A stretch of 64,000 nucleotides of DNA, from positions 64,001 through 128,000 of IMG/VR virus record IMGVR_UViG_3300043395_003024, one strand, 5' to 3'. The position numbers were made by a program, and so were the translations under genes. Under the pieces are notes generated by a model. It was not told the DNA's origin. It was given only the letters and a program-made list of their open reading frames with translations, and did no database searches. This stretch comes from a virus. Positions 4,996 to 56,583 of the stretch are shown here, in pieces; position 1 is the stretch's first letter; each line of letters opens with the position of its first letter.

Positions 4996-4996
4996 T

Positions 4997-13634: not shown

Positions 13635-16600
13635 ATGCCATCTGAACTGTTCGAATATAAGTCAAGTTCGCTTGGCAACTCCCTCTCATCCAAGGGTGGA
13701 AACATCAACCTGGACGAGGCTCAGGGCATAGTTGAGTGTTTCGTGGCCGGTATTGGGAATAAGGATTCGGTCGGTGACATCGTCGCAAGCGGCGCATTCA
13801 CAAAGAGCCTTCAGCGCCGTAAGCCACGCGTTGTTTGGGGCCACAGCTGGAATGACCCGATTGGCAAAGTTCTAGAGATTTACGAAGTTCCTAACACAGA
13901 CAACCGCCTACCGCTCAAGATGAAGATGGCTGGGATTGGCGGTCTTTTCGCTCGCGTCCAGTTCAACCTGAATTCAGAAAAGGGCCGCGAAGCCTTTGCG
14001 ATGGTTGCCTTCTTCGGCGAGGAACAGGAATGGTCAATTGGCTACAAGACGCTGCGAGCCCAGTTTGACCAGAAGTCTCAAGCAAATGTCATCTACGAAC
14101 TAGAGCTTTATGAGGTTTCGCCAGTTCTCCACGGAGCAAACCAGCTAACCGGAACAATTTCGGTTAAGTCGGACGAGCTCGCAGACAGAATGTCTGCAGT
14201 AATGGAAGATAGCGGAAGTGCTATCGATAAGGCCGAAATTGAGAAGCAATTGGCCGCGATTCTCGGTGAAAAAGTATCACTCATGGACGTAAACGATGAC
14301 GAGGTTACGTTCGCTCGCAGAATGCCCAACGGCGAAGTTGGCCGCTACAAGTGCGGCTTTAGTGGCAGCCGTGGTCGGTATATGTTCGGCGCCCCAGAAC
14401 CGATTGTTGTTATGCCAATGCGTAGGCCAATCGCGCCAGCGGCAAATATGCCGATGGCTGGACCTAGCATGCCTGCCAACGAGCCACAAAGAGTCATCCG
14501 ACCATCGCAGATGCCCTCAATGCCTGTGGCGATAAAGCCAGGCGAGAATGGCAATCGCATGGTTCCGCTCCCGCCAGTGGAGTACGAAGATGGTGGCAAA
14601 GACAGGGAAGAGCCAGAGTTCGACCCCAATAACCTAGACAGGGAAGAGGCCGACCTCAGGGATGCCCTTTTAAAAATTGTGAAGCGTCACGGTCGTTTTA
14701 ATGAGGATTCAACTGGTGTTTACGCGGCATACAGCTCGCCCGAGGAGAACGAAGTTGCCTCAATCGGAGTTAAGTGCGCAAACTGTGTTTTTTACCAAGG
14801 TGGAAATTCCTGCAAGATAATCGCAATGGATGTAGAGCCAGAAGGCAAGTGCAGATTTGCGGTTATCCCGAAGGGTGTCGTTAAGGGAAGCACGGCAGAT
14901 ACCAAGAATTATGAGCTCGATGAGGAGTTCGCGGAAGAGGACTACCTTGCCGAGCTTGAAGTTAAGTACCCAGGGGAACTAGCTGTTGCAGCTGTTCGTG
15001 GAGCAATAGGAAGACGCCGCAAGAAGCGTCGTAAGTTTAAACTTCTTGGCGAGTTTGGTTCAAAACAGGACGATTTTGATTTTGACGACAAGCCATACCT
15101 GTTGCCAGTTGTTCCGCAGTTTGCATTCCAGGTAAAACAGGCGCTTGACCCAATATTTGATTACCACAATGTTGACTCTTTTGTCGATGTAAACGGAATT
15201 GTCATCACATCTGGCGTTAGCTTTGAGTTGATTGAGGCAATTGACACAGCTGTCGAAAATCTAAAAAAAAAATCTCTAACTGAAAACGACATAGAGTGGA
15301 AGGCGGCTAGTTACCGCCTCGGTCGTGCTATCGGAAGTCGCCTAATTGACCGTCCAAACATCGGCGGTGGACGTACGCGTGGAAGATTCTTCACTTCAAT
15401 AGGCGCTGAAGACTTCGACCCATTTACAGCCCGTGATGCGAATCTAAACGGAATCGTTGGTGAAGGTTTGTTCCTTCGTGGTATAGCGCTAGCAACACCG
15501 GACCCCACCCCAGACGGCCCTGGCTCCATAAGGAACCCAAAGCCATCACCACGTCAGCTTTCAAAGCCGGAATCGGAAACAGTAGCCCGTATTGAGAATG
15601 CTGCCGGAAAGCTTTCATCGGGGAAAATAGAGCTAGACCTTCCACGATTTGATGACCCGGATATCGATTCGGCAGAAAAGTTTGGTGCAGCAGAGTCGCG
15701 GCGCGATGAACTTCAGGGCGTACTTGATGGTGCTACCGACCCAGAACAAATAAAGAAGCTAGAAAGAGCAATTTCAGAACTCGACAAGTACATGAACCGC
15801 GTCGAGAAGTTGGCCGAAAGCGAGATGGCTCAGTCTGAGAAGCCAAAGAAGAAGCCTGCAGCTGGAAAGGTAATAAAGGCCGGTCAGAAACTTTCTAGCG
15901 GATATGCAAAATACCTAGATAAGCCGAAATCAAAGCGTTCAATCGATGAGATAAACAAGTTTGATGGCCCGATTAGCGCTGCCTTGTCGTCTGGGAAATT
16001 GCCAGATAAAGCAGAGATTCCAGAAGATTCGCCGATACTGTCGGAAATGTATAAGCGGATGGCTGATGAAATAATCGCTGTTCTACAAGACCTGATTGAT
16101 AACCCCGAAAAGGCAAAACAATGGAAGATGCCGTGGCGAAATCCTGAAATTTTTGCCAGAAACCCAACGCGTAATCGTGTTTACCAGGGCATGAACCAGC
16201 TTGCACTTCTTCTGACTGCACAAAGTCGTGGATATACAACAAATAGATGGGCCGGAAAGACGCAGTGGCAGAAACTTGGTGGAAAACTAAAGCCAGGAGC
16301 TAGCGCACGCGGCGTTTCAATCCTCGTGCCGCGTGAGGGACGAATTCTAATGAACGCAGATGGCCAGCCGGTTGAGACTGGCCGCTACTACGTTGTTCAG
16401 ACTGTTTACAACGTCGATGATGTTGCTGGTCTGCCAAAGAAGTTCTACGAGGTTGAGGATAGCGCCATCAACCAGGAAGAGCGCCTACAGGACTTGGAAA
16501 ACGTAATTCAGGAAATAGGTCCTAAGTTTGTAGAGTCTAAAGGTCAGCAGGCTTTTTATCGCCCCATGACCGACAGCATCCACATGCCGGCGTTTGACCA

Positions 16601-19600
16601 GTTTGAAAATGCACTCGCATTTTATTCAACAGCAATGCACGAGACAATTCACTGGACTTCGCACCCAACGCGACTAAATAGAACTCTTGGCAAAGAGTTT
16701 GGTGATGAACAATATGCTTTCGAGGAGCTTATTGCCGAAATAGGTTCAGCATTTGCTCTTGGCTCAATGGGTCTCGAGCCAACAGTCCGCGAAGACCATC
16801 TTCTGTATCTAAATAGCTGGCTAAAGAAGCTCAAGTCAGACCCACTTGCGATACATAGGGCAATAGTCCAGGCACAGCAAGCAAATGACTATCTTCTTAA
16901 CCGTTCGGCGACAATGCGAAGACTTGCTGGCATACCTGACGATGAGCGTAAGGGCAAGGACGATATATGGTTCGAAGTTCCTATGCTCGCCGGCTATGAG
17001 GATATTGAGCCAATAAAGCCAACAACAACAATAACTGGCCCACTAGAGGACCTGCTTGACTCAGAAGCATGGGATGAATTTGTCCCAGATTCACCAAATC
17101 TGAGTATCGCGGAGCGCGAACTTCGTTCATACGACGTAGCGCCAAATGCGCCGTCAAAGAACAAGGCAGGAGTTGTTATTACTCCGTCCGGAGCGCTTGC
17201 AAGCGGTAAAAAGGCTGGGAAAATCAAGGGTACAAAGCCTGGCGTTCCAGAAATCGACAGAATTGCTGAAGATGTATCGCTAAAGCTTGCATTTGGTCTG
17301 GCTAATGAGCCCACAAATGAGCAGCGCGACATTATGGCTGTTGCTCTATCGCTTATCCACGGCAATAATCCTGCAATTTTAAGTGTTCTTGCTGGTGCTG
17401 GAACTGGAAAAACGACAACGCTTAAAAGCATCGCGTGGGCTCTTCAGAGAGAATTCGACCTATGGCCGGAAGGTGACCCAAGAAGGGCGGAACAGCTTGC
17501 TTACCTATCGGATAGATATGGAATTGATTTCAGCAAGATAAAACCAGAGAAGATTGCTGATGCAGTAACTGAGTTAGCAAAGAATAATAAAACCGGAAAT
17601 CTTTACTATACGGTTTTCAACACAAAAAACCAACTAGAAGCCGAAACAGAATTCCCACGAAATACGGGTATTGCTACTACGGACAAGCTCTGGCAGTGGT
17701 CGCTCCGTCTTGGTCAGGGTGACAAAAAGTATGGACCGGGCATGCGCAGAAAAATGGGCATGCTAAACAAGAGCCGAGAGAGCAAAAAGTCCATGCGTAG
17801 AAATCCGGCATGGAAGAGCGAAGAAGAGACGCCAGGCGTCGAAAAAATGATTGGAAAAAATTTCGTCAGAGAAAAATTTGACGGAACAACCGAAACGTTT
17901 GTTGGTGAGGACCCTGGTTTTGAGGCTCTTGGCTGGACAATGCTTCAAAAAGGTGACGACTTTGCTGAGCATCTTGGCCTAGAGAAATGGCCAGATGTTG
18001 TAAAAAGAAAGAAAATGAAGCCAGACGTGGATGCTTCCGGCAGGCCTATTCGTGATGAAAAAGGAAAAGTAAAGAAGTCAGAAGTAGAAGTAGAGGGTTT
18101 TGAACTTCCAAACGGAACGTTCCTTGAACTTTCCGAAATGGGCGACCTTCTATCTAACGCCCTTAAGCGCTGGGGTCTGTCCAAAGAAGAAAAAGTTACA
18201 GCACAACACTTCATGCCTCCAAAACAGAGACTTGAAGACATGGATACGCCGCGTGGAAAGGACAATCAACCCACAGGCGTTGACAGCATTCTCACCGAAG
18301 AGCAAATTCCTAAAAAATGGATTGAGGCGGTCCAGTCAATCGTGGACGAGATTGCAGATGGCGACTCTAACCTGCTACCAACAATGGAACTTGTGTCTAA
18401 ATTCTGGATGATGACAGACCCTGACCTGAGAACAGACCCAGGTTTAATTACGCACTCTTCAGCTCAAACAAGAGTAAAAGTATCCGTTCCATCATCGCTA
18501 CGCGAAGGCGATACATACGTTTATGACGGCGAAGAGTGGGTTGTTACAGGATTAACCAAAAAGGCTGGGAAAACATCAAGTGCTACCTTACGTAAAAAGA
18601 TGGCATCAAAGGAAAATCCCCTCGGTGCATTCTTGCTAGACGAGGTGCAAGACTCAAACGAGGTTCTCGAAACAGTTCTAGATAGGAATAGGGATAAGCT
18701 CCCTATTATTCTTGTCGGAGACGATAGACAGGCTGTCTATGCATTCCGCGATGCAAAGAATATTCTGGCGTCACTTGATTCAGAGTACTCACAGGACATT
18801 ACAGAGTCGTTTAGATATGGCGAAACTGTAGGTCATGCCGCAAACCTGGTTCTTGGAGCACAAAATGTTCATCTGCGTAGACAGGGTGTTAAGCAACAGC
18901 CGTGGAAGCACGTTAAGGGCCAGGCGCAAACTGTTATCAATAGGCAGTTTGACCCACTATTGCCAGAAAAAGATAGGCTCGGCAATAATCCGGTCGATGA
19001 AATAGATGATGCAACACGCCAGATATTGATAGCCGATATAGAGAAAAAATATTCTACTCCAGAGAAGAAGCTTGACCTGCTGTCACTAGATAGACCAGCA
19101 CAGGACAAGGCCTTAAAGGAGCTTAGGGATACGCTTTATGGACCAAAAGCTGGTCAAATAGTAGATAGATATGCAGAGGCCGATAAGGGCAATCTGCCAA
19201 CGATGATTCTCTGTAGAACAAACGGTGAAATAATCAACGAAGCTCTAAAGTTTATAAATATAGTCATAAATAGTAAGGCTGTTGAGCGTGATGAACGAGG
19301 CATGCCAAAACTACCTGAAGTAATTATTCCAGCTAGCAAGTGGGAGCAGCTTCTTACATTTACTAAGCACCTTGACTTCATAATGCGTTCACCTGCAAAG
19401 CAGCAAGAATACATAGCAAGATTTGGTAAGCCAGAGATGTCATCATGGCTCGGACCGATTTGGACACAGGGCACCTTGCAGAAAGCTCTCAATCAGTCAA
19501 AGTATCAACAGGCGCGCAGCGCATACAAACTGATAATGCAGCCGCCAAAGAGCGACCCAACTGCTCCGCCACTTGGCACTCGCGGCATGCTTGAACTTTT

Positions 19601-30200: not shown

Positions 30201-31686
30201 AAGCGATATAGCCGCGGCGCGCGAAAGACAACTTGATGAGGCGATAAGAGCGGCAGATATAGAACGTTCCGGCCGCTTATCAAGTGGCAAGAAAGGTTCG
30301 CCTGGTAGACAGAGCGTTGGACGTTTAGCAAAAATGCGCAAATCTAAGGCTGATAAGCGCAAAATTGAGCGCGAGCGTGAGCTACGTAATCTGTATGGCG
30401 AAGATGTTGGAGATATAACACGTTATTTCAGTGGAATGCTGTCTCGCGACGATGCTGACCTAATGATTTACAATGATTTTGTTGAGGGCGGCGAAAAAAT
30501 TGAAAGAGTGGCCCGCAGATATGAGATATCAACTGATGAAGTAAATAGTGCTATCGAGCGATTTAAAAATCTTGATGCAGAAACACAACAGGAACTACGG
30601 GATAGGGCAATAACACGAAATGGCCCATTACCAACAGAAACATCAGGAAGATTATCGTCTGGGAAAACACTCAACAGGTCGTCTGAACAGTATGCACGTG
30701 AATACTATTCTCGAATAGGTCTTCCAGAATCCGTAAGCAACGACTCTCTGCCAGTAAGCGGATATCTAGTTCACAAGTCGCATCTTGATGCCAAGAGACA
30801 GCAAATAATGAATTCAAAGAATGGCAACCTAAGGCCGGATGCTGTTTACGAGATAGGGGACGAAGACGTTGTTGGCGATGGACTGACAGCATTTGGCGAC
30901 ATAGAAATTGTTCTTAGACCATCAGTATCCGAGAGAACTGCTTATGGTCGCGGCAATTCAATATCGTCTGCTCATCGACCTGTCAAGCTAAACTCCCGCA
31001 ACAGAGAAGACGTTGCTGATGCTATATTGAACCCAGACGGCATCAACGGAGATAAGCAGGCGCAGGAAGCGTTCCTGCACATGCTTTCGTCGTCAATAAA
31101 TAACGATTTCTCAAACGTAAACGCGTCAAGAGGCTCGAAAGGAACAATGCCAAGTTCCTTTGACAAGAATCTTCCAGATGGTTCATCAAGAGAGCCGTTT
31201 GAAGCGCAGATACTTGGTGGATTTGACATAAATGAAGTCGAACAAGTCAATATCCCATTCAAGAGGCTTCAGTCTGCTGGCGAAAAAGAAAATATTAGCG
31301 ATGCGGTCAACGAGCGGTCAATAGCAGAGAAACTGAGGTCTGCTGGGTTCTCTCCAGAAGAGATTCAATATTTTTACTCAATCGGCGGTGGCAAAAATAT
31401 CAACACGCAAAGCATGGCAATGCTGCGACAGTACAGAGCATCTCAAAAAATAAAAACAGACATGGCCAGCAAGGGTCTTAATAATGTCAAGTTTGCCCAT
31501 CCAACCGGTTTCAACATAGAAGACCCGCGGTCGCACTCCAAGGCAGCAAGGGGAGGAGAGTCGGTCGAGTCCGTCCTGATTAGGGCTATTGGGGATGAAA
31601 TAGTCGAAGCTGCGAAAGACATGATGAAAGAAATGAAAAACAGCCGTAAGCCGCAAATAACGTCAACTTCTGGTGGAATGCTATGA
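24211..31686 (+). CDS. Giant polyprotein 2: zincin HExxH, degenerate ART-like, ParB/Srx-like, HTH and DUF3626-like segments
   Basis: HESAH (26017) + ALEASAELW; PILTTRDKYILDGHHRW (~29800); FGDIEIVL..R..GNS...EAQILGG; 5 LSSG linkers. Confidence 0.8.
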   Translation: MAKTPQTRERVIVSARLIVPTSCCGGFNEKAVRFRTSINSSVSSGRLQAEMATKAITSGFGIRVKAYVDTDNKKREFTGDSRPGVESNEYGYRWEKSATWEPGSRLVISPSFKSREGMGTEPNVGWIKPDKNAPKNFAETLERIRSKPTIKLSKYKVNPKTDEVIPDSEQVIDPFGITAGLSYEEKQKAIQKYKGNLIEKKMLPGRSLESRVPGGSLLSRAAAVFGILRDENNKFRCPPGTPAANQFTDATGSNCFGFSPSRFARFAARQAAKLTAEGEYQGLRNNARSFFNFLYNDQYSAEARGVADPALLGRSVYWDSISGDRFKPPSWREIEVPGNLRMFKNGAVRGQDDIARQKASVARIVESLGIDPADPDASLKAAQALRKMWEDTGGAAGWDLEILNVSGDGAALLDDFEIKQFMEARLQSVPGWGALSKEERDRLLLSDIGRYKETQKAMFDTLLDLFSKDPAGMRSIGRIEYNFFSDDEAGTSLYRDAPKLVQALNPDGTPRLDRDGNPVMRKVPGEMRTAIHINMAEILSNQESMLPDMRPDQRLAISAVGARSEAEGRLAVADFLINADYASRGMAGLLDGVYSFSSHIMLHESAHHKQAQLFQEKIMSEIADKGFITVPVIRDGVKIGERNVDSIYKLSGDDLMAIMTDTADSINLDSLNDAMERIKAIAPLAGSYPRDTYIEGSEVWALEASAELWALRERGIIYGEDIDAALEWMDSASFAAAARERASADDDSAMDSMDDVFRIPTPTTVPDDMPDDVIEETLADRDERLASELREEIKRFKTVFGELPEEEMFDEAAIIASQRDNAKRRLDAVRDFEIDPTLPDDERISLESMKAEAIKDCQRALDYHTKKYDEASKIWRKKYGVGASGEKKRFEDSVREVREREGLLDVGEMEEIARLADLDDLRESVKGMPEKKVIRKLADDEVRLSTMDPASPEARDLAERIDVIKDQHAKNLKEAGDTRSITAVKRDIDKKVKDTISPPPKPSKKFKSAKEASDHGARERRRVKATPEQKKAMKELGDVAESDVGMLLDPATQTRAGRAMNKRNARLKRLGLEVDPMSSDEADTVQQVEKLLIPTMEAIDGTSVADPFEMEAIIDFEAGVLKGKLDGKEVDVDKFVSGRVITSRTKKTDMPERGRRDAKTGRTSRRVVVQVREGDRGLFPATGGEGEQKFVAPPGRLRIIGRDSDGTIRAEISYQKDAVEVVDGMADSLSKNKTDAIWAQSHAKKIQAVADKYVSKRRASGKTFPGSRSDYDDVAAKSTSDVLDDVIDAGGSFGEGIDDLPPDGPSGRSGSLSSGAVNGKRSALGVPATRQQRTQSRESRMSSVTRNIKTALGGGRGDGSISRGDIHPEVADLIAGLPEEVLISRAQATAYRMHEGFDRRVRVRATDADIERLSSGRGIRSPFSSPSDETARASRRAERLAGMPPEQRSARLSSGRTIDSSENLAERRRQEKDVAKRALSVFDDVINSGQNVNDMSDDEISKRFGGSVKRSARKSISEKDSNLYEVDDVSTAVALMMLGHHVEVRDQDIRLTEQAQKVFEKEVKSVAKKHIKENHPRWRAFQEEYALKNPGLDIDNPDVRKAMESEYVGNYQADLCSLYNPANNLMCSGHIGIDREKMPQTNGRSSGQNTKAIMALKAGVAAGKWEPSKDGITRNRELEIEFAEELDAKIAKINRKRSQEIPPKDAVSDDEIPGILYEIIADKHSLRNELSGKTQREHMEDSFSLLSDKAKQWLYENTDWNDTEVNLETPFINWLNGVIDVEDPQNGAAVRLRKVDPSEYAPSQQQLVASKVDSTAQTIQETAIKIAEQIRAASPGISDEEFRVKYLEEMGKEWFMQPILTTRDKYILDGHHRWAGIVVGNRSLPPELQIPLSANEVQTDIIEGLTLGKVFQDAFGIKEARLGAELRWDGKQENIPQISPDEFDAISTDLTANAPRLIDEKYNQGDYIQLGSVGLRNNPDYAQAVEFRQRLARTRGQSDIAAARERQLDEAIRAADIERSGRLSSGKKGSPGRQSVGRLAKMRKSKADKRKIERERELRNLYGEDVGDITRYFSGMLSRDDADLMIYNDFVEGGEKIERVARRYEISTDEVNSAIERFKNLDAETQQELRDRAITRNGPLPTETSGRLSSGKTLNRSSEQYAREYYSRIGLPESVSNDSLPVSGYLVHKSHLDAKRQQIMNSKNGNLRPDAVYEIGDEDVVGDGLTAFGDIEIVLRPSVSERTAYGRGNSISSAHRPVKLNSRNREDVADAILNPDGINGDKQAQEAFLHMLSSSINNDFSNVNASRGSKGTMPSSFDKNLPDGSSREPFEAQILGGFDINEVEQVNIPFKRLQSAGEKENISDAVNERSIAEKLRSAGFSPEEIQYFYSIGGGKNINTQSMAMLRQYRASQKIKTDMASKGLNNVKFAHPTGFNIEDPRSHSKAARGGESVESVLIRAIGDEIVEAAKDMMKEMKNSRKPQITSTSGGML

Positions 31687-36342: not shown

Positions 36343-37701
36343 ATGTCGGAAGACAAAGCCCGTATCGAGGAGCTGCAATCAGCCCTCCGTCAGAAGATGG
36401 CAGACAATAAGACCATCGCTGACTCATTCAGAGTTGAGGACGGCACCGTTGTCGTTACTCCAGAGCAGAAGAGCGCGTTCGACAAGAACATGCGCGACAT
36501 CAAGGAAATCAAGGGCCTTCTCGGCGACCTTGAGACCATGAACTCAGTTGATAGCTGGGGTTCAGAGCCGTCAGGCGATTCAGCAGCCGCCGCTTACGCA
36601 GCTGCTGCCGCAGACATGAACCAACTGTCATCTCGTGAAATCAAGAGCATTGGTCAGATGTTCCTTGAGTCAGCAGAGTTCAAGGCTCTCAACGGTGGCC
36701 GTAATGGCGCAAACATGGCCGCTCCGTGGCAGGTTGCCGCTTCGCTAACATCTGGCTACAACGTCAAGGACGTGTACTCAGGTCTGCCTACAACAGACGT
36801 TACCGGTAGCCGTCTCGGTTCATTCGGCACGGTTCAGCGTGACCCAATGGTAACACCGCCAATGCGCACAAAGCGCGTTCGCGACCTGTTCCCAACACGC
36901 ACCACAAACGCTGCAGTGATTGAGTACTTCCGTCAACTCGGCTTCACCACGCTTCAGGCTGGTCATGGCACGAACTCGGCTTCTTCGGTCGCTGAGCGCA
37001 ACGCCGGCAACACAGCATTCGGTATCAAGCCGCAGTCATCGTTCGCCTTTGTTGGCGAGCAGGCGCCGGTTCGTACGCTCGCCCACTGGGAAGCAGCGCA
37101 CCGCAACGTCCTCGCAGATGAGCCGCAGCTGCGTTCAATCATCGACAACGAGCTCATGTATGGTCTCCGTCTCCTTGAGGACAACCAAATCCTCAACGGT
37201 GACGGCGTCGGCGAGAACCTGCTCGGCGTTCTGAACACCCCGAACATCCAGGAGTACGCATGGTCATCCGGTGCCGTTACCCCGGTCCCGGACACAAAGG
37301 CTGATGCTCTCCGTCGCGCTGCGACCCTCTCATTCTTGGCATACTACGAGCCGTCAGGCATCGTGGTTCACCCGAACGACTGGGAAGACATCGAGCTGAC
37401 AAAGGACGCCAATGGTCAGTACCTCATCGCGGTTTCGGTCGCAATGGGTGGCGAGCCACGCGTCTGGAGAATGCCAATCGTGGACACCCCGGCAATGACC
37501 GAGGGTACAGCACTGGTCGGTGCGTTCGGTACCGGCGCACAGCTGTACGACCGCGAGCAGGCGAGCATCCGCATCAGCGAGCAGCACTCGGACTTCTTCG
37601 TCCGCAACGCCATCGTCATCCTCGCGGAGCAGAGACTGGCACTCGCCGTCAAGCGTCCGGAGGCCTTCGTGAAGGTGGACTTCGACAACGCCCCTGACTG
37701 A
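36343..37701 (+). CDS. Major capsid protein, HK97 fold
   Basis: Coiled-coil N-terminal delta domain, VRTLAHW, LEDNQILNGDG, VVHPNDW, KDANGQY, RLALAVKRPEAF; AAGGAG RBS; strongly biased codons. Confidence 0.95.
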   Translation: MSEDKARIEELQSALRQKMADNKTIADSFRVEDGTVVVTPEQKSAFDKNMRDIKEIKGLLGDLETMNSVDSWGSEPSGDSAAAAYAAAAADMNQLSSREIKSIGQMFLESAEFKALNGGRNGANMAAPWQVAASLTSGYNVKDVYSGLPTTDVTGSRLGSFGTVQRDPMVTPPMRTKRVRDLFPTRTTNAAVIEYFRQLGFTTLQAGHGTNSASSVAERNAGNTAFGIKPQSSFAFVGEQAPVRTLAHWEAAHRNVLADEPQLRSIIDNELMYGLRLLEDNQILNGDGVGENLLGVLNTPNIQEYAWSSGAVTPVPDTKADALRRAATLSFLAYYEPSGIVVHPNDWEDIELTKDANGQYLIAVSVAMGGEPRVWRMPIVDTPAMTEGTALVGAFGTGAQLYDREQASIRISEQHSDFFVRNAIVILAEQRLALAVKRPEAFVKVDFDNAPD

Positions 37702-40546: not shown

Positions 40547-40550
40547 ATGG

Positions 40551-42899: not shown

Positions 42900-42912
42900 A
42901 TTTATATTTTAT

Positions 42913-44082: not shown

Positions 44083-44110
44083 ACGAATTCGGTAAGAGGG
44101 GTCTTGCCGA

Positions 44111-44524: not shown

Positions 44525-44550
44525 CCTCCGGTAATTCATGGGAGGGCCAG

Positions 44551-44886
44551 ATGAAAGCAATTAGTCGCATAGACGAACTTCCACGCGGAGGTGACTGCGC
44601 TGGGCATGACCCCGACATTTGGTTCCCGATGGCCGATAAATCAGAGCCCGGCGAATTCTCCCGAAAAATCCGTGAGGCCAAACTAAACACAGAGATTGCC
44701 AAGAAAATCTGCTCAACTTGCCACATCCGGCAGGAATGTTTGTCCTACTCGCTTTATCACGAAATGTTTGGAATATGGGGTGGGGCGACAGAGCGGGAAC
44801 GTCAGAAGATTCGTAAACAGCTGAACATTGTTCCCATACCACGCATACCTGTTAATCTGCTTTTCCTCTCATCGCAGGCAAATTAA
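44551..44886 (+). CDS. whiB: WhiB-family transcription factor
   Basis: C...DPDIWFP...AKKICSTCHIRQECL..GIWGGATERER. Confidence 0.93.
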   Translation: MKAISRIDELPRGGDCAGHDPDIWFPMADKSEPGEFSRKIREAKLNTEIAKKICSTCHIRQECLSYSLYHEMFGIWGGATERERQKIRKQLNIVPIPRIPVNLLFLSSQAN

Positions 44887-47395: not shown

Positions 47396-47702
47396 CCAAG
47401 AAGAGACTGACAACATCCGCTCCGCCATGGACAAGGTGGCGGAAACGTTAACCCCCAGCATTTCCACGTCAATAGATGCTGAAGATGGGCCAGCAGACAA
47501 GCAGGTTCTAATCAGAACTAACGATTATGAACGAAATCGCTGGAAAGAAGCCGCCTCCATTGAGCAGATTTCCCTTTCTGCGTGGATTCGAACAGTCCTC
47601 AATTCTGAAGCAAAGCGCCTCCTGGAATGTGACCATCCAATGAATATGGTCCGCTTCTACCCGTGGTCAAAAATATGCACCAAATGCGGTAAGCGCCTCT
47701 AA
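47379..47702 (+). CDS. Ribbon-helix-helix-like protein with C-terminal zinc motif
   Basis: VLIRT...WKEAA...SLSAWIR; CDH...CTKCG. Confidence 0.6.
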   Translation: MSQENNQEETDNIRSAMDKVAETLTPSISTSIDAEDGPADKQVLIRTNDYERNRWKEAASIEQISLSAWIRTVLNSEAKRLLECDHPMNMVRFYPWSKICTKCGKRL

Positions 47703-47736
47703 TTGGCCTTTATTTGTAATGGTATTATTTATTTAG

Positions 47737-50700
47737 ATGTCTGCAGATAATCAAGAGTTTCACATTCCCTTTGAGGAATCTCGTCGCGGTGCAAATTCAA
47801 GCCCGGAAAAGAAAGCTGCCCTAGGAAGACTTGGCCGCTATCTTGGCTCAAGAGCTATCGATAGGCCACGAATTGGCGACGGTCACCGTGATAGAAGACG
47901 CGGAAGGGACCATGGATTAAACATAGACCTGCCGACCGGCGGTAGACCGGGAAACAGACGCCCAACCGGTAGCCGCCTAGACCCAGATAATGATGGCTGG
48001 GCAGACGAGGGGACAACTAAGCCGGTATGGGTTGGCATTGGCGGTGCTGAAAATCGCAATACCCGAGCGTCAGGTACGAGAATGGCGGAAGAGCCAGACA
48101 CGTCGAGAACGCTTTCTTCAGGGAAGAAGTATCAGGAGATTGTTGATTCCCAGCCACCCGTGTCTGACGAAAAGAAAAAACTTGCATCTGAGTTTATAGA
48201 CGATATAAAGCAGGGTGAATTTTTAAAAGAAGACGTATACGAGGAAGAAAAAGGTCCTCGCCCACCACGGCCGCCTGGAATGCCGGAGCCAAAACCGTTA
48301 ATGGTAATCCAGGACAATGAAGACAGGAAGCTAGAAAAACAGCGTGTCCGCGATTTGTTGGCTGAGCTTTTTAAAGGTGAAATGACACTTGATGAAGACA
48401 TTATTATTACCACCGACGATGGGAAAAAAATAAATATAGGCAACAGGGTATTGATAGACATTGCTCCTAGCAGTGACTCGAAATACTCTACTTCTGTAAA
48501 AGTTCATAAGGCTAACGATGCGGATATCGCTGATGCCAAAGAGCTATATGGTGATACATTCGAACCGGGCGACATGCTGACCGAGGTTCAGCTTGGGTTT
48601 TTGGTTAGACCGCTTCCAGAGTACGAAAAAGAACTCATCGAATCATTAACGGACGAAAATAAAAAATCATTTCTCTCCTATGAAGATGGACGTTTATCGC
48701 TAGCACGCGCATATAGAACATATATCAATGTTTCTAATGACGAAAAAAACCTGGGATTAATTTCTCATGATTCATTTTATGTTCTTGGCATGGCTCAGGG
48801 CCAGGGGATAGGTTCGGCGTTTAATGCCAGAAATGAAAAACTATATAACGAGCTTGATGTTGCTTCGATATATACACACGGCCATTCAGGCAAGGGGGCA
48901 CGCGGCGCTGTCCATTGGCCCAAGAATGGATTTACGTGGGCTGGAGAAAACGACAAACAGAAGTTCTTATCGATAATCGACAAGGCCATCACGGAGCAAC
49001 CAGAAATATTCTCTGCGGAAGATAAAAAGAAAATATCTTCTCTATATAGAAAAAATCCAGATACTGGGCTTTTTGAAACAGAAGCAACAGCCGAGGAGCT
49101 TGTCGACTTCCCCGCCGCATATGAAGTATTTGCGGATGAAGAAGCACAGATAATGTACTCAAGGCCGCTAAAACAGCTCGCAGTGGCATCCTCGGGCCGT
49201 CTATCGTCCGGCTCAACTAAGCGTAGCTCTCGTGGAGTCCACGTATCAGAGCTGTACGACGGCGACTATGGCACGTGGGAAGAGGGGGCATTGCTCACTC
49301 CAGAATCACTATACAGACTCATATCTAGAGTGTTTGAAAAAAACGATATAGATGCGTCTTTGCCTAAATACGATGGAGCTCTTGAAAAAATAACTGAGTA
49401 TAAAGATTTTGGGTCAGTAATTAATGACTCACTAAGGCTGGGTTACACATTTGATGACCCGCGGTCCCCCAACCTGTACGAATATGCGTCTATGCAGCGG
49501 CTCCTAATGGACAACAGAATAACCGCCGGCATAACGTTGTATAGGTCAATCGCGAATACGCCAGAAATTGCATCGCTTAAAGAGGGTGACACATTTGGCG
49601 ATAGGGGCTTCCAGAGCTTTACAGTGATGGCCCCAGGCCAATACTCTGGAATGGGAGACAAAAGGCCAATAGTTCTTCGCTTATTAACAACAAAGAACAC
49701 GCGTGGCAGATACATATCTAGACGCCCAAATGACTATAACCTAGAAAACTTTGATACCCGGAAGCCTCTCGACGAAAGATATTTTGGAATAAATGAACAC
49801 GAAGTATTGCTGCCTGCTGGTGCAACATACAAGCTGGTTAAGAAGACGCAGACTGATGATGGACGTGAAATCTGGGACGTCAAACTTTCCGGTCAAGGCA
49901 AGCTCAGTTCTGGGGCAAAAGAAGTAGCACTAGATAATGTTGATTCCAATACGCTAAGTAGCGGGAAACCACCACGTCACCCAAGAACGCCAACGCTTGG
50001 TGCATTTATCGGTACTGCTGATGAAGAATTCGCAGACATAAAATCGTGGGACGAGTTTAAGAAGCTGTACGACGACAAAGAAGTTATATTTTTTGACTAT
50101 GAAACAACCGGATTAGTTTTTGACGAATTCGGGAAAGAGATTAGTAAAGGTGCGCCAGTCCAGTTCGGTGCCGTGAAAATAAAAAACGGCAAAGAGGTCG
50201 AAAGAATAAATCTGTTCATGAATCCTGGAGAGCCACTCGGTGAGTGGTCTAGGAATAATCTCAAAGATAAAGACGGAAATCCACTAACAGATGAATGGCT
50301 GGGCAGCCAGATATCTATAGACGAAGCACATAAGCAGCTGATTGAGTTTGCGGGCCCAGAAGCAATATTTGGCGTTCAGAATGCCACATTTGATAAGGGA
50401 GTTCTTGACGGCGTTCTGGAACAAATGGGTGAAAAGTGGCGCCCATCTGGATACCTGGACACGAGAGAAATAGCTTCCCTAACTCTCCCAAAGTGGACCC
50501 CGGAAACGGATGACGGTCCGTTCATGCTTGACAAAGAAGGAAATAAAAAGCCATCTAGTAGCCTTGCTGCAATAACCGAATATCTCGGAGTAAACCTCGG
50601 CGATGGCCACCATAACGCTGACTCAGATGCTTTTGCAACAAGCCAAGTAATGCGCCGGATTATTGATGGGGCTATCGAAAAGAATTGGCCGACAGATGCT

Positions 50701-53700
50701 CTGAATAAACAAAAGCGCGATTCGCTGCATAAGCAAACAGTCGACAAATTTAATGAAGAAGTAGCCCAGTTTGAAAAAGACAAAGCTTCGTATTTCGAAT
50801 CACTTTCATCAAATTCTGAGTCGCTTTCATCTGGTCGCAACCGGCCGGTCATTCAAATCAAGCCAACACAGGAACAGAAGCCAACAGAGCCAGGTAAGCG
50901 CGCGGTCAAGGGCTATGGCCAGCCTGATGCATCCGGAAAAGAAGTACGCAGAACCAACACCAAATGGCTAGCTGGGATGACTCCTGACGAAATCGCGCAA
51001 GTGGTTGTCCCAACCAGCGACGAACAGCGTTTTGAAATGTGGGCTGATGACATAGCCGGTGATACTTGGCGCACAAATCGTAAGTGGAGAAAATTCCTAG
51101 AAAAGTATTATTCGGAACTAGGCAAAGCTGACAATTCTCTACCTATTGATTATTCCCCAGAGTCGGTAAAGGCAGCACAAGACCTTGTTCGTGGGCTACT
51201 TGAGTCGTCCCCGCAGATGAGGTGGATGTTCGAGAACCATGGCGCCCCCCTGATAACAGTGTTTTCACGCGAAGCTGTAGATGCTTACGAAAACAACGGG
51301 GATATGAAACAGCGCATGGAGCAGCTACGGATTCAGCGCGGGGTAGAGAAGACGCCATTCGTTAGTGGGCTCGCAGTGCGCGAATACGGGCTCATTGGAT
51401 TTACACCGCGAGCAATAATTGATAGGGAGTCGTTAACGACATCCGAAAAGGGCGTATATCCAATTTCACTAAATCCAGACAGGCTCCCAGAACCGCGCGA
51501 TGCACATATGGACAGAAGCCTTGAGGGCACACTAGTGCACGAATATGGCCACTGGCTCCACTATCGCGCCATATGGGATACGGAGACAAATGGGGCATCC
51601 GGCAAGGCGCGTTCGTACTACGGAAATGGCGATTTAAGGGACCCTAAATACACCGCAGCACTCGATGTTGCTGAGGAATATGCAAACCCCGATACGGACA
51701 ATGAAGCAATAGAAATATATACGCAGTTTGTTGACCTGACTGGTCGTGACGCCGAGGAAATGTTTAGGGCAAATCCGGACAAAGCGCTAACTGCAACATC
51801 TTATGGAAATGTCAATAAGCGCGAAGCAATAGCTGAGGCGTTTGTTGCAATAATGCACCCAAACAGAGAAATGGCAAAGCGCGCTTTAAGCAAAAAATTG
51901 CGCGATGACATTTACACCCTTGCTGGGGTAGATAAAGATGACCTTCCGTGGGATAGACGTGCGGACGGGCGTCCGACAATAAGACTTTCTTCTGGGGCTA
52001 CGCAAAAACCAGAGCGCGAGAAGCGCAGGGGACGGATGGCCAGGGCGCTAAGACAGCTCATAGGCGGGGACGAGGCTGCCGAAGAACCAGAGAAGACTCA
52101 GGAGCCATACACATTCGAGGCCCCAGAAAGGCCGGAAGGCCTAGCATCCTTTGCTACAGGACCATCTGAGCGCCTGCGCGCCTCGCTTCCAATACCCTCA
52201 GAGGAGGATTTAACTGCGGAACTAGAACATGACGTGAGGGCAATGATTCTTGACCCAGTTATCGAGGGCCTATCCACACTTGATGTAACAGGGTTTGGCG
52301 TAAGCATGTTTTCATCCGAGGAGGATAGAAAAGCTAGCTCCTCAGCAAAGAGAATGATTGCGTCAAATATTGCAGAAACAGCAAAGATTGAACCGCGTGA
52401 ATTCATTAAATCGTTCTCTGAAGAATCAATTAAAGAAAGCGGTCTAGATTTAGCTGCTCAACGAAGATTTTTCCATGCGGCTGCAAATTTCAGGGCACTA
52501 AAAGGAATATTTGATGCCGTTGACAATCTTCCAGAAAATGCAACTGAAGAAGAAAGGCGTGCTGCCGGAAGGTTTGCTATTGACAGGTCCTCTGGCGCGG
52601 TGGTGTCCGTAGAGAAGCATGACAAAATAATCCAAAAGAGGTTCTGGTTTGACGAAATCATAGATGAGCTGGAAAAACGCTCATACGAGGACCTGTTCGG
52701 CGACAAATGGAATGAACTAACAAACATTGCGCTAGGCGACGAGAAGTCAATATTGACTCCATACTTGATAACGCGTCTTGGTGGAGACGAAATCAAAAAA
52801 GACATGCTCAATTTTGGCCTCCAAATAAGGACAATGTTCAACGATTTAATAGCGGAGATGAAGGGCGCTAACGGCGCCGACCGTAAAGACCCGCTAACTG
52901 GAAGACCATTGAAAGACGGGGATGGATTAGCCCTAATGTTCTCTCCAATGGGCGAGATTGACCCACGCACAGGAAAGCCTGGGATGGCATTGATTTCTAA
53001 GGGTGGCTCAATAAGTGACCAGTACGCAAGGGATTTCAAATCACTTATCCGTGATGGAAAGATTGTTCCAGAGCTAGAAAGAACAGATGAGCAACACAAG
53101 GCCTACGACAGACTTTACGTAAATTACGGAGCGAAAGATGACTACCTGGAGAGGGTGGCAGCTGCTGGATTATTTGTTGTTGACGCAACAAATGTTGATT
53201 CCCCAGAAACAAAAGAATTATTAAAAAACTTTTTGATAAATAGATTGCGGTTTATTGCCGGCAATGCAGAGGATTATAAAGCGCGTTATGAATACAAGAG
53301 CGGTATTTCATTTTTCGATATAAATTCTCCGGAAGGGATAAGAGAGGCGCGGTTAGCAATAGTTTCCGACATCATCCATACATGGGCAATTTCTTCCAAT
53401 AACTCAAACCCTGTAGCCATGGCAATACAGCACGAAGCACGAAAAATGTTTGGGCTGGACGATGCAGTTGGTTGGTACGGAGGCGTGCGTGGCAAGAGAA
53501 ATGACATTCTCTACGATTCGGCTATACCGATTGAGCGGCGTTCAGAGTTTGGCGACCTTGCTTTTGACGATACCCCAGAACTTAGCGAAAAACAGTCAGA
53601 AGTGATTCGCTCTGTAGTGAAGGCAATATACGACGCTACGCAGCATTACTACAAGTCAAAAGGAATTACGCATCTTGGTGTATGGCGAGGCATGAAAGCC

Positions 53701-56583
53701 ACGCCACAAATGGCAGTCGGAAGAGGAGAGATTGCCGAAAGAGAAGTGGCTATGCGTCCGCTTTCGTCGTGGACAACGAGCAGCACTATGGCCCAGGCTT
53801 TTTCAACATCGCTCGCTGCCGCTAAAAAACCAGGGATAGATGCGCTAGAGGAAGCTCAGGCTGTATTTGATTCAAACGTCCTCATGAAGGCATACATTCC
53901 TGTAGAACAAATATTCTCAAACCCACTAACCGGATTTGGCTGCCTCGGAGAGGACGAGGTTGTAGTGCTTGGTCGTCCAACAAAGACGTTGATGATTACT
54001 CCTCCGGCTAATTTCCTTCCGGAAATGCCATCTGATGGCGAAGGGACGGAAGGTGCTCGCGAAGTCATCCAACAAACACTTGATATTGCTACAAACAGAG
54101 ACAAGATTACAAACGCCGCATATAGGGAATTGCGTAGGACGGGATTTGACAAATTCAGCAGTGGTCCAACGCGTAATGATTCAGAAAGACTTTCGTCAGG
54201 CGCCAGACTGTCCCAGGTCACGGAAAAACTACCGATAGAGGGAGAGCTTAGCGTAGCTGAAACGACCGGAGAAACGGAAGGTGGCATATCCAAGATTGCA
54301 TTTGGAAAAAGAATTGCCGCAGTACTTGAAAAGACACTTGGAATTACTCTCGATGACTATCAGAGAAAAACAATTCAAGATATAATGCCAAATCTTCTTA
54401 AAGCGCTGAACAAAAGAAGGCTTCAGGAAGTGAAGCCACACCCCGCGTTCAGTGATACAGGAAGACAATTACTAGACTCAATATCGATAAGCATCGCTGC
54501 AGACGGTATACCCTTCGTGTCGGCTGACCCAATCCCGCAGATAGCGGAACACATACCAAAGAAAATTGATTGGAGAACAGTGGAACTTCCTTCGCGTAGT
54601 TCGTTGCTTCCAATCCTTGACAGGGCAGTGGCCGGTTCGCTGTTGTTTGACGACGAAAAGAAAGAATGGTTAGATGTTTTGGGCAACGCTGTTGCAAGAC
54701 AAGCTTCAGTAAATGGTGAATCAGTTCTCCAATATGTAGACGAAGCGGCAAAAGCTAAATTCCCACTTTTGGAAGCTATAGCACCAAAGGGTTATGTACT
54801 ACCATCCGACGCAATAGGGAATAGCGCCCTCCAGCGTGATGTGCTGCCCGGGATATATGGCGAAGCATGGCGTAAACACAGCGAATTTATGATGGAGCTG
54901 GCTGCAAAAGCTGGCGCAGCGATGGGTGACAATTCCCTGTTTGATGGAACGAAAAACAGAAGAGATTCCAGTTCTTTTGTTGAGTCGTACGTCGGAGGAA
55001 TAGAGGACCCTATCTACTTCAATATGGGCCTATCTGGAAAGGCGCTTCAGGCCCTCCACGACCTATTCGGACACCTTGGTACTGGCCGCGCATTTGACAG
55101 ACACGGAGAATGGGCAAATGACATTGCCATGATGTCAATGGCGGACCACCCCGACTCTCCGCTATCCGACTTAGAGAAGCTTGCTGTAAAGCATTTGCAC
55201 TTCCAGTTATATGCAGCAAGAAGACTTGGACGCTCACGGCGAGATGATTCTGGCGACCCCGGCTTCATACATGCAGTGACGGATACGTTTGGTATAAGGG
55301 ATGGCGAGCTCAGGGGGAGGCGGGTTTCGCTTGTTTATGCAGGCGACTTCCGAACGGCAGCCGAGGAGATGGAGAGGGTCTCGATTAACAACAAGCTGTC
55401 ATCAGGCAGAAAGAAAATTCAAGATGCGTCAAAAGACGATATAGAGCTAGCCGTAGCCCAGGACATTATCGGCCATAGTGAATCACGAGCCAGGCGATTC
55501 AAGCCAAGCAAATCAACTCGCTTATCTTCTGGGAAGGTTATTAAATATAACCTGATTGAAGCGCGCATGAAGGCCAGCGATATGAGGATTACTTTCAATC
55601 GTGACCCGGAGAGAGTTGCCGCGGTGAAAGCAACGCTCACCAAGGGCTTTATGGGCGGCTTTACCGTCGAAGTCGACAGGATGGATGACATAAAAGAAGG
55701 TATAGCCATAGCCAGAAATAAGCACGGCATGAAAGTTGACGCCGTAGCAGATTTTGACGCTGAAGGTAATCCGTCTGACGAGCTAGTAGAAACCTTCTTG
55801 TCATGGATGGACTTCCATGGGCCTAAAACGTTTGCAAACCCAAAGCAGGGGGCAGACAAAACAACAATCGGCGGATGGGTTTCCGATGGGACAGTCTACC
55901 TTGATGTTGTTGACGTTTATCCAAACAATGAAGAGAACCTTTCCAGGGCTGCCGACATGGGGCTCCAGGAAGACCAAATAGCCGTAACCGACCTGAACAA
56001 GCTTTGGGAATTGCTTGGACGAAATGAAGACCCAAGCCCTGCATTTATTGACTCTGGTGGCACTGGTGGATTCACCCTAGACGAGGAGTCGGTAAGAAAA
56101 GTTAGTGCCGCACTGAGCGAACTTAAGTCAAACAAGTTCAATACTGGCTCTTCGCATCTCAAACGAATTGGTAACACCAGGAAATTTACCGAGGGCCCAA
56201 TAACTGGAGCTCGTAGGGTCAGGAATACAGATTTATCCACAGGTGAAACCAATGATTACTGGGTAATTTCCGGAGCGGACGGAATGGTAAAAGTATTTAC
56301 GCATGAACAGTACATCAAGGTAAGGGACGGAAAAATACAGGGCCTATTTGACAAAATGTCAAATCCTTCTGACATTCTCAGAAGCATGTTCGAGGCTGAG
56401 AAGTTGAAGCCAGCGGCCACGATGTCTTTCGGAAGTAGGCGTACGGTTGGCAAGCCGACGATATCCAAGGAGCATAAGGGTCGCGGTCTGGCTGCGGCGA
56501 TGGCAAATCTATATGGATTTGCAAATGGCCTAAATAATGTCGGAGTTCAAATGGGCGACAAGGTTGTCGCGGCTATGGCGTGA
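47737..56583 (+). CDS. Giant polyprotein 3: GNAT, ART, DEDDh exonuclease, zincin, second ART, HDxxGH domain, unknown/GNAT-like C-terminus
   Basis: Domains listed separately; 9 LSSG + 1 FSSG at segment junctions. Confidence 0.85.
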   Translation: MSADNQEFHIPFEESRRGANSSPEKKAALGRLGRYLGSRAIDRPRIGDGHRDRRRGRDHGLNIDLPTGGRPGNRRPTGSRLDPDNDGWADEGTTKPVWVGIGGAENRNTRASGTRMAEEPDTSRTLSSGKKYQEIVDSQPPVSDEKKKLASEFIDDIKQGEFLKEDVYEEEKGPRPPRPPGMPEPKPLMVIQDNEDRKLEKQRVRDLLAELFKGEMTLDEDIIITTDDGKKINIGNRVLIDIAPSSDSKYSTSVKVHKANDADIADAKELYGDTFEPGDMLTEVQLGFLVRPLPEYEKELIESLTDENKKSFLSYEDGRLSLARAYRTYINVSNDEKNLGLISHDSFYVLGMAQGQGIGSAFNARNEKLYNELDVASIYTHGHSGKGARGAVHWPKNGFTWAGENDKQKFLSIIDKAITEQPEIFSAEDKKKISSLYRKNPDTGLFETEATAEELVDFPAAYEVFADEEAQIMYSRPLKQLAVASSGRLSSGSTKRSSRGVHVSELYDGDYGTWEEGALLTPESLYRLISRVFEKNDIDASLPKYDGALEKITEYKDFGSVINDSLRLGYTFDDPRSPNLYEYASMQRLLMDNRITAGITLYRSIANTPEIASLKEGDTFGDRGFQSFTVMAPGQYSGMGDKRPIVLRLLTTKNTRGRYISRRPNDYNLENFDTRKPLDERYFGINEHEVLLPAGATYKLVKKTQTDDGREIWDVKLSGQGKLSSGAKEVALDNVDSNTLSSGKPPRHPRTPTLGAFIGTADEEFADIKSWDEFKKLYDDKEVIFFDYETTGLVFDEFGKEISKGAPVQFGAVKIKNGKEVERINLFMNPGEPLGEWSRNNLKDKDGNPLTDEWLGSQISIDEAHKQLIEFAGPEAIFGVQNATFDKGVLDGVLEQMGEKWRPSGYLDTREIASLTLPKWTPETDDGPFMLDKEGNKKPSSSLAAITEYLGVNLGDGHHNADSDAFATSQVMRRIIDGAIEKNWPTDALNKQKRDSLHKQTVDKFNEEVAQFEKDKASYFESLSSNSESLSSGRNRPVIQIKPTQEQKPTEPGKRAVKGYGQPDASGKEVRRTNTKWLAGMTPDEIAQVVVPTSDEQRFEMWADDIAGDTWRTNRKWRKFLEKYYSELGKADNSLPIDYSPESVKAAQDLVRGLLESSPQMRWMFENHGAPLITVFSREAVDAYENNGDMKQRMEQLRIQRGVEKTPFVSGLAVREYGLIGFTPRAIIDRESLTTSEKGVYPISLNPDRLPEPRDAHMDRSLEGTLVHEYGHWLHYRAIWDTETNGASGKARSYYGNGDLRDPKYTAALDVAEEYANPDTDNEAIEIYTQFVDLTGRDAEEMFRANPDKALTATSYGNVNKREAIAEAFVAIMHPNREMAKRALSKKLRDDIYTLAGVDKDDLPWDRRADGRPTIRLSSGATQKPEREKRRGRMARALRQLIGGDEAAEEPEKTQEPYTFEAPERPEGLASFATGPSERLRASLPIPSEEDLTAELEHDVRAMILDPVIEGLSTLDVTGFGVSMFSSEEDRKASSSAKRMIASNIAETAKIEPREFIKSFSEESIKESGLDLAAQRRFFHAAANFRALKGIFDAVDNLPENATEEERRAAGRFAIDRSSGAVVSVEKHDKIIQKRFWFDEIIDELEKRSYEDLFGDKWNELTNIALGDEKSILTPYLITRLGGDEIKKDMLNFGLQIRTMFNDLIAEMKGANGADRKDPLTGRPLKDGDGLALMFSPMGEIDPRTGKPGMALISKGGSISDQYARDFKSLIRDGKIVPELERTDEQHKAYDRLYVNYGAKDDYLERVAAAGLFVVDATNVDSPETKELLKNFLINRLRFIAGNAEDYKARYEYKSGISFFDINSPEGIREARLAIVSDIIHTWAISSNNSNPVAMAIQHEARKMFGLDDAVGWYGGVRGKRNDILYDSAIPIERRSEFGDLAFDDTPELSEKQSEVIRSVVKAIYDATQHYYKSKGITHLGVWRGMKATPQMAVGRGEIAEREVAMRPLSSWTTSSTMAQAFSTSLAAAKKPGIDALEEAQAVFDSNVLMKAYIPVEQIFSNPLTGFGCLGEDEVVVLGRPTKTLMITPPANFLPEMPSDGEGTEGAREVIQQTLDIATNRDKITNAAYRELRRTGFDKFSSGPTRNDSERLSSGARLSQVTEKLPIEGELSVAETTGETEGGISKIAFGKRIAAVLEKTLGITLDDYQRKTIQDIMPNLLKALNKRRLQEVKPHPAFSDTGRQLLDSISISIAADGIPFVSADPIPQIAEHIPKKIDWRTVELPSRSSLLPILDRAVAGSLLFDDEKKEWLDVLGNAVARQASVNGESVLQYVDEAAKAKFPLLEAIAPKGYVLPSDAIGNSALQRDVLPGIYGEAWRKHSEFMMELAAKAGAAMGDNSLFDGTKNRRDSSSFVESYVGGIEDPIYFNMGLSGKALQALHDLFGHLGTGRAFDRHGEWANDIAMMSMADHPDSPLSDLEKLAVKHLHFQLYAARRLGRSRRDDSGDPGFIHAVTDTFGIRDGELRGRRVSLVYAGDFRTAAEEMERVSINNKLSSGRKKIQDASKDDIELAVAQDIIGHSESRARRFKPSKSTRLSSGKVIKYNLIEARMKASDMRITFNRDPERVAAVKATLTKGFMGGFTVEVDRMDDIKEGIAIARNKHGMKVDAVADFDAEGNPSDELVETFLSWMDFHGPKTFANPKQGADKTTIGGWVSDGTVYLDVVDVYPNNEENLSRAADMGLQEDQIAVTDLNKLWELLGRNEDPSPAFIDSGGTGGFTLDEESVRKVSAALSELKSNKFNTGSSHLKRIGNTRKFTEGPITGARRVRNTDLSTGETNDYWVISGADGMVKVFTHEQYIKVRDGKIQGLFDKMSNPSDILRSMFEAEKLKPAATMSFGSRRTVGKPTISKEHKGRGLAAAMANLYGFANGLNNVGVQMGDKVVAAMA
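48124..49200 (+). other. GNAT-like acetyltransferase segment
   Basis: AQGQGIGSAF acetyl-CoA motif; GAVHWPKNGF. Confidence 0.65.
49213..49902 (+). other. R-S-E ADP-ribosyltransferase (VIP2/Alt-like) segment
   Basis: ITLYRSI, DRGFQSFT, NEHEVLLPAG. Confidence 0.8.
49966..50823 (+). other. DEDDh 3'-5' exonuclease (DnaQ-like) segment
   Basis: FFDYETTG, QNATFD, YLDT, HNADSDA. Confidence 0.88.
50836..51984 (+). other. Zincin metallopeptidase segment
   Basis: TLVHEYGHWLH (51538) + TSYGNVNKREAIAEAF. Confidence 0.8.
51997..54153 (+). other. Segment ending in a second ART-like domain
   Basis: VWRGM, PLSSWTTS, GEDEVVVLG at ~53670-53990. Confidence 0.65.

Follow-up and report, generated by a model that had tools for sequence, protein, structure and literature searches.

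Three giant proteins encoded in one stretch of phage DNA carry the tetrapeptide LSSG at the boundaries between their modules, and we propose that these junction peptides probably are processing sites at which virion-delivered polyproteins are cut into separate enzymes. The stretch (the window) is 64,000 nucleotides long and comprises bases 64001-128000 of the single-contig 145,204-bp record IMGVR_UViG_3300043395_003024, from an uncultured virus. The three proteins are:

13635..22466, plus strand: giant A, 2943 amino acids (aa), directly after the portal gene; defined from the open reading frame (ORF), Pfam domains and 22 non-redundant orthologues
24211..31686, plus strand: giant B, 2491 aa; 13 non-redundant orthologues
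47737..56583, plus strand: giant C, 2948 aa; a leader (residues 20-100, window 47794-48036), then about ten modules

An earlier note on this DNA, made from the sequence alone, had reported 4, 5 and 9 copies of LSSG in giants A, B and C. All 18 were found, each with its Leu codon at the position the note had assigned to it, as were the variants LASG at 17196 and FSSG at 54154. The enrichment it had estimated also holds against shuffled controls, as none of 5000 shuffles of each giant matched the observed count. Composition predicts 0.07, 0.09 and 0.10 copies for A, B and C, a total of ~0.26 compared with the 18 observed (Poisson P for at least 18 copies with a mean of 0.26 = 4e-27). Since both the Leu and the Ser codons differ between copies, the motif is maintained at the protein level, as the note had argued, and a DNA-level repeat is ruled out as its source. 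Outside the giants, six-frame translation of the window gave five copies, mostly in short non-genic frames, which corresponds to chance, and across the whole 145-kb genome no non-giant protein has more than one LSSG except a 1604-aa tape measure protein (TMP), which has two. The LSSG in the 614-aa primase (45696) was rejected as a junction because it is missing from the orthologue and thus attributable to chance. A literature search for LSSG in phages returned nothing relevant, the peptide being unmentioned in the searchable literature, and no paper was found that combines polyprotein, ejection proteins and cleavage motif.

In giant A, the junction peptides at residues 660, 753, 784, 1188 and 2405 delimit the modules as follows:

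13728..14159, plus strand: S78 (HK97 gp4-type) prohead protease domain, A residues 32-175 (PF04586, 45 bits against a cut-off of 21)
15297..15554, plus strand: leader module, A ~555-640 (RLIDRP...GGxRR), preceding the first junction; conserved in orthologues and matching the N-terminus of giant C
15612..15623, plus strand: junction LSSG, A 660; exact in 17/22 orthologues, with gap-rich flanks
15891..15902, plus strand: junction LSSG, A 753 (orthologue alignment)
15984..15995, plus strand: junction LSSG, A 784; exact motif in 21/22 orthologues
15996..17195, plus strand: ArdC-like module (ArdC-N 804-895 and MPTase-PolyVal 953-1076, from Pfam), HExxH at 16638-16652
17196..17207, plus strand: junction LASG, A 1188; motif in 22/22 orthologues, LSSG in most
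17208..20846, plus strand: UvrD/SF1-like helicase module, A 1192-2404 (PF00580 and AAA_19)
20847..20858, plus strand: junction LSSG, A 2405 (orthologue alignment)

The MPTase-PolyVal domain is a strong match (PF18818, 138 bits), and residues 804-1093 match stand-alone ArdC-like genes of phiCbK-type phages, indicating that the module between junctions 784 and 1188 corresponds to what is a stand-alone gene elsewhere. Upstream of the junctions, a Cys-rich block (GVKCANCVFY...GKCRFAVIP, A ~337-417, window 14640-14890) is near-invariant across all A orthologues; related genomes also encode it elsewhere in ORFs of its own (99-128 aa), and the "capsid maturation protease" gene of phage DSL-LC01 contains it.

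Giant B begins with a long conserved module, and its junctions all lie downstream of it. The evidence listed for some sites includes the ends of BLAST high-scoring segment pairs (HSPs) between orthologues, the AlphaFold models described below and their per-residue confidence score (pLDDT):

24211..28143, plus strand: B1, N-terminal 1311-aa conserved module, HExxH at 26017-26031; the first LSSG follows directly
28144..28155, plus strand: junction LSSG, B 1312, within a stretch of pLDDT <50 (model residues 850-909)
28447..28458, plus strand: junction LSSG, B 1413 (count, AlphaFold model)
28564..28575, plus strand: junction LSSG, B 1452 (count, AlphaFold model)
30277..30288, plus strand: junction LSSG, B 2023; orthologue HSPs stop at ~2045
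30652..30663, plus strand: junction LSSG, B 2148; orthologue HSPs begin at 2148-2151

There is no LSSG inside B1, which has one VSSG at residue 42. The N-terminal module (~1,260-1,310 aa) is collinear in 13/13 non-redundant orthologues and is always followed by the first junction, after which the downstream modules vary. An MCSG/LCSG at ~B 1626 was rejected as a junction because it is a conserved part of a folded module. At the end of B1, a beta-rich domain (B ~1080-1270, window ~27450-28020) resembles C3/Vis-type ADP-ribosyltransferases (ARTs; Foldseek, E ~2e-4).

Giant C has the largest number of junctions, several of them doubled:

48112..48123, plus strand: junction LSSG, C 126, end of the leader (count, AlphaFold model)
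49201..49212, plus strand: junction LSSG, C 489 (count, HSP ends, AlphaFold model)
49213..49902, plus strand: ART module, C 493-722 (PF03496, E 8e-8)
49903..49965, plus strand: double junction, LSSG at C 723 and 740 with a 13-aa spacer (count, AlphaFold model)
49966..50823, plus strand: DEDDh/DnaQ-like exonuclease module, C 744-1029 (PF00929; Foldseek: PolC-exo, DnaQ, RNase T)
50824..50835, plus strand: junction LSSG, C 1030 (count, HSP ends, AlphaFold model)
50836..51984, plus strand: HExxH module, C 1034-1416, HExxH at 51538-51552; weak Peptidase_Mx match
51985..51996, plus strand: junction LSSG, C 1417 (count, HSP ends)
54154..54201, plus strand: junction pair, FSSG C 2140 and LSSG C 2152 (count, HSP ends)
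55396..55533, plus strand: junction pair, LSSG C 2554 and 2596 with a 38-aa spacer (count, HSP ends)

Giants B and C have one HExxH each. The leader is common to A and C (A 554-584 and C 24-57 are 65% identical by BLASTP) and reads LGRxxGSRxIDRPxIGGxRR, extended in some orthologues by PTGGxPGxRxPTxxxDPDxDGWxDEG, a DxDxDG-like loop; the DxDGWxDEG portion is present in some A orthologues. Both leaders start directly after E-x-K↓[AS] and end before the first junction; giant B lacks a leader. The leader module may be a capsid-targeting signal.

To follow the motif across relatives, we collected 422 stretches from IMG/VR that matched giant A and retained 78 loci (31-81% identity). LSSG is the commonest tetrapeptide in nearly all giants of these loci, which at 2,900-4,900 aa contain as many as 13 copies, and it occurs clade-wide in 244 distinct contexts where 3.5 are expected. 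FSSG, I/V/M-SSG, LASG and LCSG are tolerated variants, the second Ser and the Gly being nearly invariant; R, then S and K, is preferred before the motif and R, A or K after it, and the farther flanks are nearly information-free. When 23 non-redundant A proteins (22 orthologues) were aligned with MAFFT, the five giant A sites were matched exactly in 17-22 of the 22. Identity is 0.8-1.0 in the motif columns and 0.25-0.30 in the 40 flanking residues (9th-24th percentile within the protein); for insertions, four of the five sites rank in the top 11% of the protein. Longer A orthologues have additional modules, and each comes with one motif copy.

The junctions were predicted to lie between folded domains rather than inside them, and Pfam, Foldseek, the alignment and AlphaFold models agree on this. 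We modeled B 420-1500 and C 1-1100 with orthologue alignments as input. All eight covered sites (B 1312, 1413 and 1452; C 126, 489, 723, 740 and 1030) fall in low-confidence coil between confident domains, in or beside stretches of pLDDT <50 and at the edges of confident domains. The recognisable domains between sites are ArdC-N with MPTase (A 788-1187), the SF1 helicase (A 1192-2404), the ART (C 493-722) and the DEDDh exonuclease (C 744-1029).

Homologous giants retain the linker motif while their modules are swapped, permuted and added, as seen in orthologues of A, B and C. Five relatives, complete or near-complete, encode a C-type giant whose modules are the same but differ in order and number. 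From a BLAST HSP end between these permuted orthologues, the median distance to a site or terminus is 11 aa, compared with 90 aa for random positions (76% versus 24% within 40 aa). These comparisons indicate that the sites bound the cassettes in which modules move.

When A 1-660 was used as the query in an exhaustive search without profiles, 246 proteins had E<1e-30, among them many giants fused to S78 (up to 5,358 aa), and different lineages were found to have different over-represented junction peptides: RLSSG, RFSSG, RGLASG, GLAS[ST], GLRSS, GMRS[RST], DGFASRG and GPVGxM[AS]. The codes share a core that starts with a hydrophobic residue (L, F or M), continues with Arg or a small residue and, in most codes, Ser, and has a Gly before or after it. 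LSSG, judged from these peptides, is one lineage's version of a drifting junction code. The B-type giants of GLAS, GMAS and GFAS genomes carry their own genome's version, the first junction after B1 included, and a GMRS-type contig encodes a B-type giant with GMRS directly after the zincin module. Among the cassettes of two distant S78-fused giants, P0031 and P0054, we also noted pentapeptide-repeat modules (GANL/GADL arrays).

The motif reaches beyond the three giants, into the tail tape measure, which is encoded upstream of the window:

genome 56024-60838 (7,976 to 3,162 bases before the window start), minus strand: TMP, 1604 aa, in the gene order sheath, tube, chaperone, TMP

This protein has no family in PHROGs or Pfam and was assigned by gene order. 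It has LSSG at residues 36 and 580. The TMPs of six LSSG-type genomes each have two [LF][SA]SG, near residue 36 in 5/6 and at ~570-610 in 6/6, and those of GLAS, GFAS and GMAS genomes have the G-first version at the two equivalent places. In total, the N-terminal and mid-protein sites match the code of their own genome in 10 genomes. That one code is used across unrelated proteins in each genome, and changes together between genomes, points to a common phage-encoded reader. The C-terminal segment of the TMP also has an HxxxD...HxH pattern that looks M23-like by eye; family searches gave no match for it.

The scheme that we consider most consistent with these observations begins with the position of the giants among head-assembly genes, with the prohead protease at the start of A and with the leader that A and C share before their first junctions, which suggest that the polyproteins would be loaded into the capsid. 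A phage-encoded site-specific protease would cut each junction, and the products would be an ArdC-like anti-restriction protein, an SF1 helicase, ADP-ribosyltransferases, a DEDDh exonuclease, zincins and modules of unknown function. The freed enzymes would act in the newly infected cell, where an anti-host role for the ArdC, ART, exonuclease and helicase modules would be plausible. Given that the TMP carries the same code near residues 36 and 580, the cutter probably is not confined to the procapsid interior. The earlier note had described the giants as virus-style polyproteins cut by one site-specific protease. The polyprotein architecture is well supported by the motif at module junctions and by the shuffling; for the one protease there are two candidates, and that the giants are packaged, cut and delivered to the host, at which bond and by which enzyme, is what we infer.

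Every genome examined encodes both protease candidates, the N-terminal S78 domain of A and the N-terminal HExxH module of B. We slightly favor the latter, acting in trans before assembly or after ejection, as a tentative assignment with somewhat less than an even chance. B1 and its HExxH are found in 13/13 orthologues and in distant lineages, with H603, E604 and H607 invariant in 14 sequences and a confident AlphaFold2 model; the module is only 24-37% identical between lineages and thus diverges fast, as does the code. The invariant HExxH, the universal presence and a divergence that parallels the code all are consistent with B1 being the reader. That the S78 prohead protease of giant A is the cutter is possible, if rather doubtful. 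Its fusion to cargo and the precedent of T4, phiKZ and SPN3US would favor it, and it is encoded in the head module, directly after the portal gene. Its domain is 77-83% identical between the LSSG, GFAS, GLAS and GMAS lineages, and a few subsite changes could still suffice to alter its specificity. This high identity across differing codes, together with a code-free boundary in the major capsid protein (MCP) and the fact that the TMP is not a head protein but a product of the tail pathway, argues against S78.

The capsid protein bears on this choice:

36343..37701, plus strand: MCP (PHROG 10; alignment of 49 sequences), without the junction code

It has no [LF][SA]SG. At residues ~94-106, the expected boundary between delta domain and N-arm, it has a conserved QLSS-RE-IK↓SIG, which is alike in the GLAS, GFAS and GMAS lineages. 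We take K↓SIG to resemble the HK97 gp5 cleavage site, K103↓S104-L-G, and it is the probable maturation site. The "QLSSRE" at this position was rejected as a junction site, as lineages with other codes show no corresponding change there. The junction motif is thus not what marks the probable capsid maturation site, and code-bearing proteins are not restricted to the procapsid, as the TMP has the code at two conserved places. K↓SIG in the MCP and E-x-K↓[AS] before the A and C leaders suggest that S78 may have a separate cleavage code of its own.

Several observations weigh against the processing scheme or its candidates. HExxH is missing altogether from several of the distant A-type giants that bear a code, which excludes cis action of a zincin in every giant; a zincin cutter would need to work in trans. 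B1 matched no peptidase family in a Pfam scan, and Foldseek searches with the B model returned C3-like ART folds only and no named zincin family. The motif enrichment in the TMP is moderate (P 0.002-0.04 per protein), the protein being rich in Gly, Ser and Ala. If both candidates are packaged, cutting of the TMP would need activity before assembly or after ejection, which is a speculative requirement.

The distribution of the code also bears on explanations that do without a phage protease. A short linear motif that is not cut, serving as a docking or handling signal on every protein that leaves via the tail (for virion loading, threading through the tail channel or modification of Ser), is unlikely, though the carriers are the TMP and probable capsid cargo, and one Ser is invariant in nearly all codes. 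For such a signal a single copy per protein would suffice, and instead a copy is found at essentially every module boundary; pairs of copies separated by a spacer of 13-38 aa are frequent, and added modules bring their own, all of which fits module separation better. Cutting by a host protease after ejection would explain the presence of the code on TMP and capsid cargo regardless of virion location. We consider this very unlikely, because lineages close enough to share 72-83% identity in capsid protein and S78 domain differ in their code (LSSG, FSSG, GLAS, GMRS, GFAS), a drift more readily explained by a co-evolving reader that the phage encodes than by a conserved host enzyme. We know of no host protease with this specificity. 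Least probable of all is a linker that has no reader and is a passive remnant inherited with its cassette or a recombination scar. The sites do coincide with recombination and permutation breakpoints. Yet codons vary freely, leaving no DNA-level homology to drive recombination, the four residues stay at 0.8-1.0 identity while their flanks drift and gain or lose residues, and the use of one code per genome, the unrelated TMP included, requires selection by a common reader.

Returning to processing by a phage enzyme, a bolder version can be drawn, which we regard as possible but rather improbable in its entirety: the fast-evolving B zincin would read the lineage code, effector cassettes could be freely added, dropped and reordered, and unfolded enzyme "trains" would be threaded through the tail and cut inside the host. 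The sharing of the code by the TMP implies that cutting may occur only after ejection.

The giants resemble the polyvalent proteins of phages (Iyer, Burroughs, Anand, de Souza, Aravind 2017), which are predicted to be packaged and delivered with the DNA, and for which processing by embedded peptidases was predicted and an analogy to RNA-virus polyproteins drawn (PMC5512222). Each of A, B and C joins several unrelated conflict-type domains in one polypeptide (A: S78, ArdC-N, MPTase-PolyVal and UvrD-like; B: HExxH and an ART-like fold; C: ART, DEDDh and HExxH). As in polyvalent proteins, ArdC-N, zincin MPTase, helicase, ART, ParB-like and nuclease domains are combined beside portal and packaging genes, and the zincin-like MPTase hub domain is present. 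No conserved junction peptide was described for polyvalent proteins, and their assemblin-like peptidase is "always at the C termini" (PMC5512222), whereas here S78 is N-terminal and one short, lineage-drifting code is common to several giants and the TMP. By sequence, the giants thus have the polyvalent-protein features that we compared, and the shared junction code is a new one; like virus-style polyproteins, they have a repeated short motif at every module junction.

A close parallel in which a short motif directs the processing of many virion-delivered proteins is provided by the internal proteins of T4 and its Alt, phiKZ and SPN3US. The proteases are the T4 prohead protease gp21, phiKZ gp175 and SPN3US gp245, the latter two of which cut head and ejection proteins at S/A/G-x-E or A-x-E (PMC5694885). 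In T4, N-terminal leaders (capsid-targeting sequences) target the cargo, which includes an ART (Alt). Processing in those phages removes propeptides from separate proteins, all of them head substrates and the capsid protein among them; here, the motif separates up to ten modules in one chain, occurs in the TMP and not in the capsid protein. RNA-virus polyproteins and pp220/pp62 of African swine fever virus likewise have one translation product, a repeated short junction motif and an embedded protease, the cleavage being putative in our case, but the proteases are unrelated, the host here is bacterial, and the modules are shuffled accessory conflict enzymes rather than a fixed replication or structural set. 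The Dar proteins of phage P1 (DarB, DdrB) and the N4 virion RNA polymerase also are very large capsid-packaged proteins that function in anti-defence or early infection, as the giants would if packaged, but these are single proteins without a repeated junction code. DdrB is proteolytically processed, and the N4 polymerase is packaged unprocessed (PMC5512222).

Whether and where polyvalent proteins are processed has so far been a matter of prediction; the giants offer exact candidate cut sites, two candidate proteases and natural code variants. If the proposal is correct, double-stranded DNA phages use true polyprotein processing to deliver a modular, fast-reshuffled arsenal directed at host defence and host takeover, and the junction code would divide giant "hypothetical" proteins, dozens of them, into individual enzymes whose functions are unknown. 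In the laboratory, a portable short cut site paired with its protease could be a useful tool.

The surrounding genes place the giants in a virion and packaging context, with the order terminase, portal, giant A, a 533-aa ORF, giant B, further ORFs and MCP. The plus strand of the region encodes the portal, giant A, the acidic 533-aa ORF, giant B, five ORFs of unknown function, the MCP, the primase and giant C, and the minus strand encodes the large terminase, recombination genes, a ParB/PAPS-reductase cluster and head-tail adaptor and neck genes. The portal gene is:

11404..13503, plus strand: portal protein (PHROG 2662/12), directly upstream of giant A

Upstream of the window are sheath, tube, tail chaperone and the 1604-aa TMP, followed by baseplate and fibre genes, a set that identifies the phage as a myovirus. 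It is a phage without a close cultured relative. Among cultured phages, its capsid protein and protease are closest, at low identity, to those of actinobacteriophages, from which the host is judged to be probably an actinobacterium; a megablast search of cultured phages with giant A gave zero matches, and tblastn of giant C against them gave scattered exonuclease matches only. The Actinomycetia phage DSL-LC01 (OQ999401) has the Cys-rich part of giant A and a 3.3k-aa giant, in which we found no enriched junction peptide.

Two further loci were noted. The ORF between giants A and B (533 aa, window 22595-24196) is acidic, Glu/Asp-rich and without a family match or junction code, and a 651-aa acidic ORF occupies the equivalent position in a distant GMRS-type contig (L185); the 533-aa product may be a scaffold or internal head protein. 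On the minus strand at window 2337-5869, a PAPS-reductase-family protein is encoded between two ParB-like proteins, adjoining exonuclease and Erf-like annealing genes, and this cluster may be a DNA-modification or recombination module.

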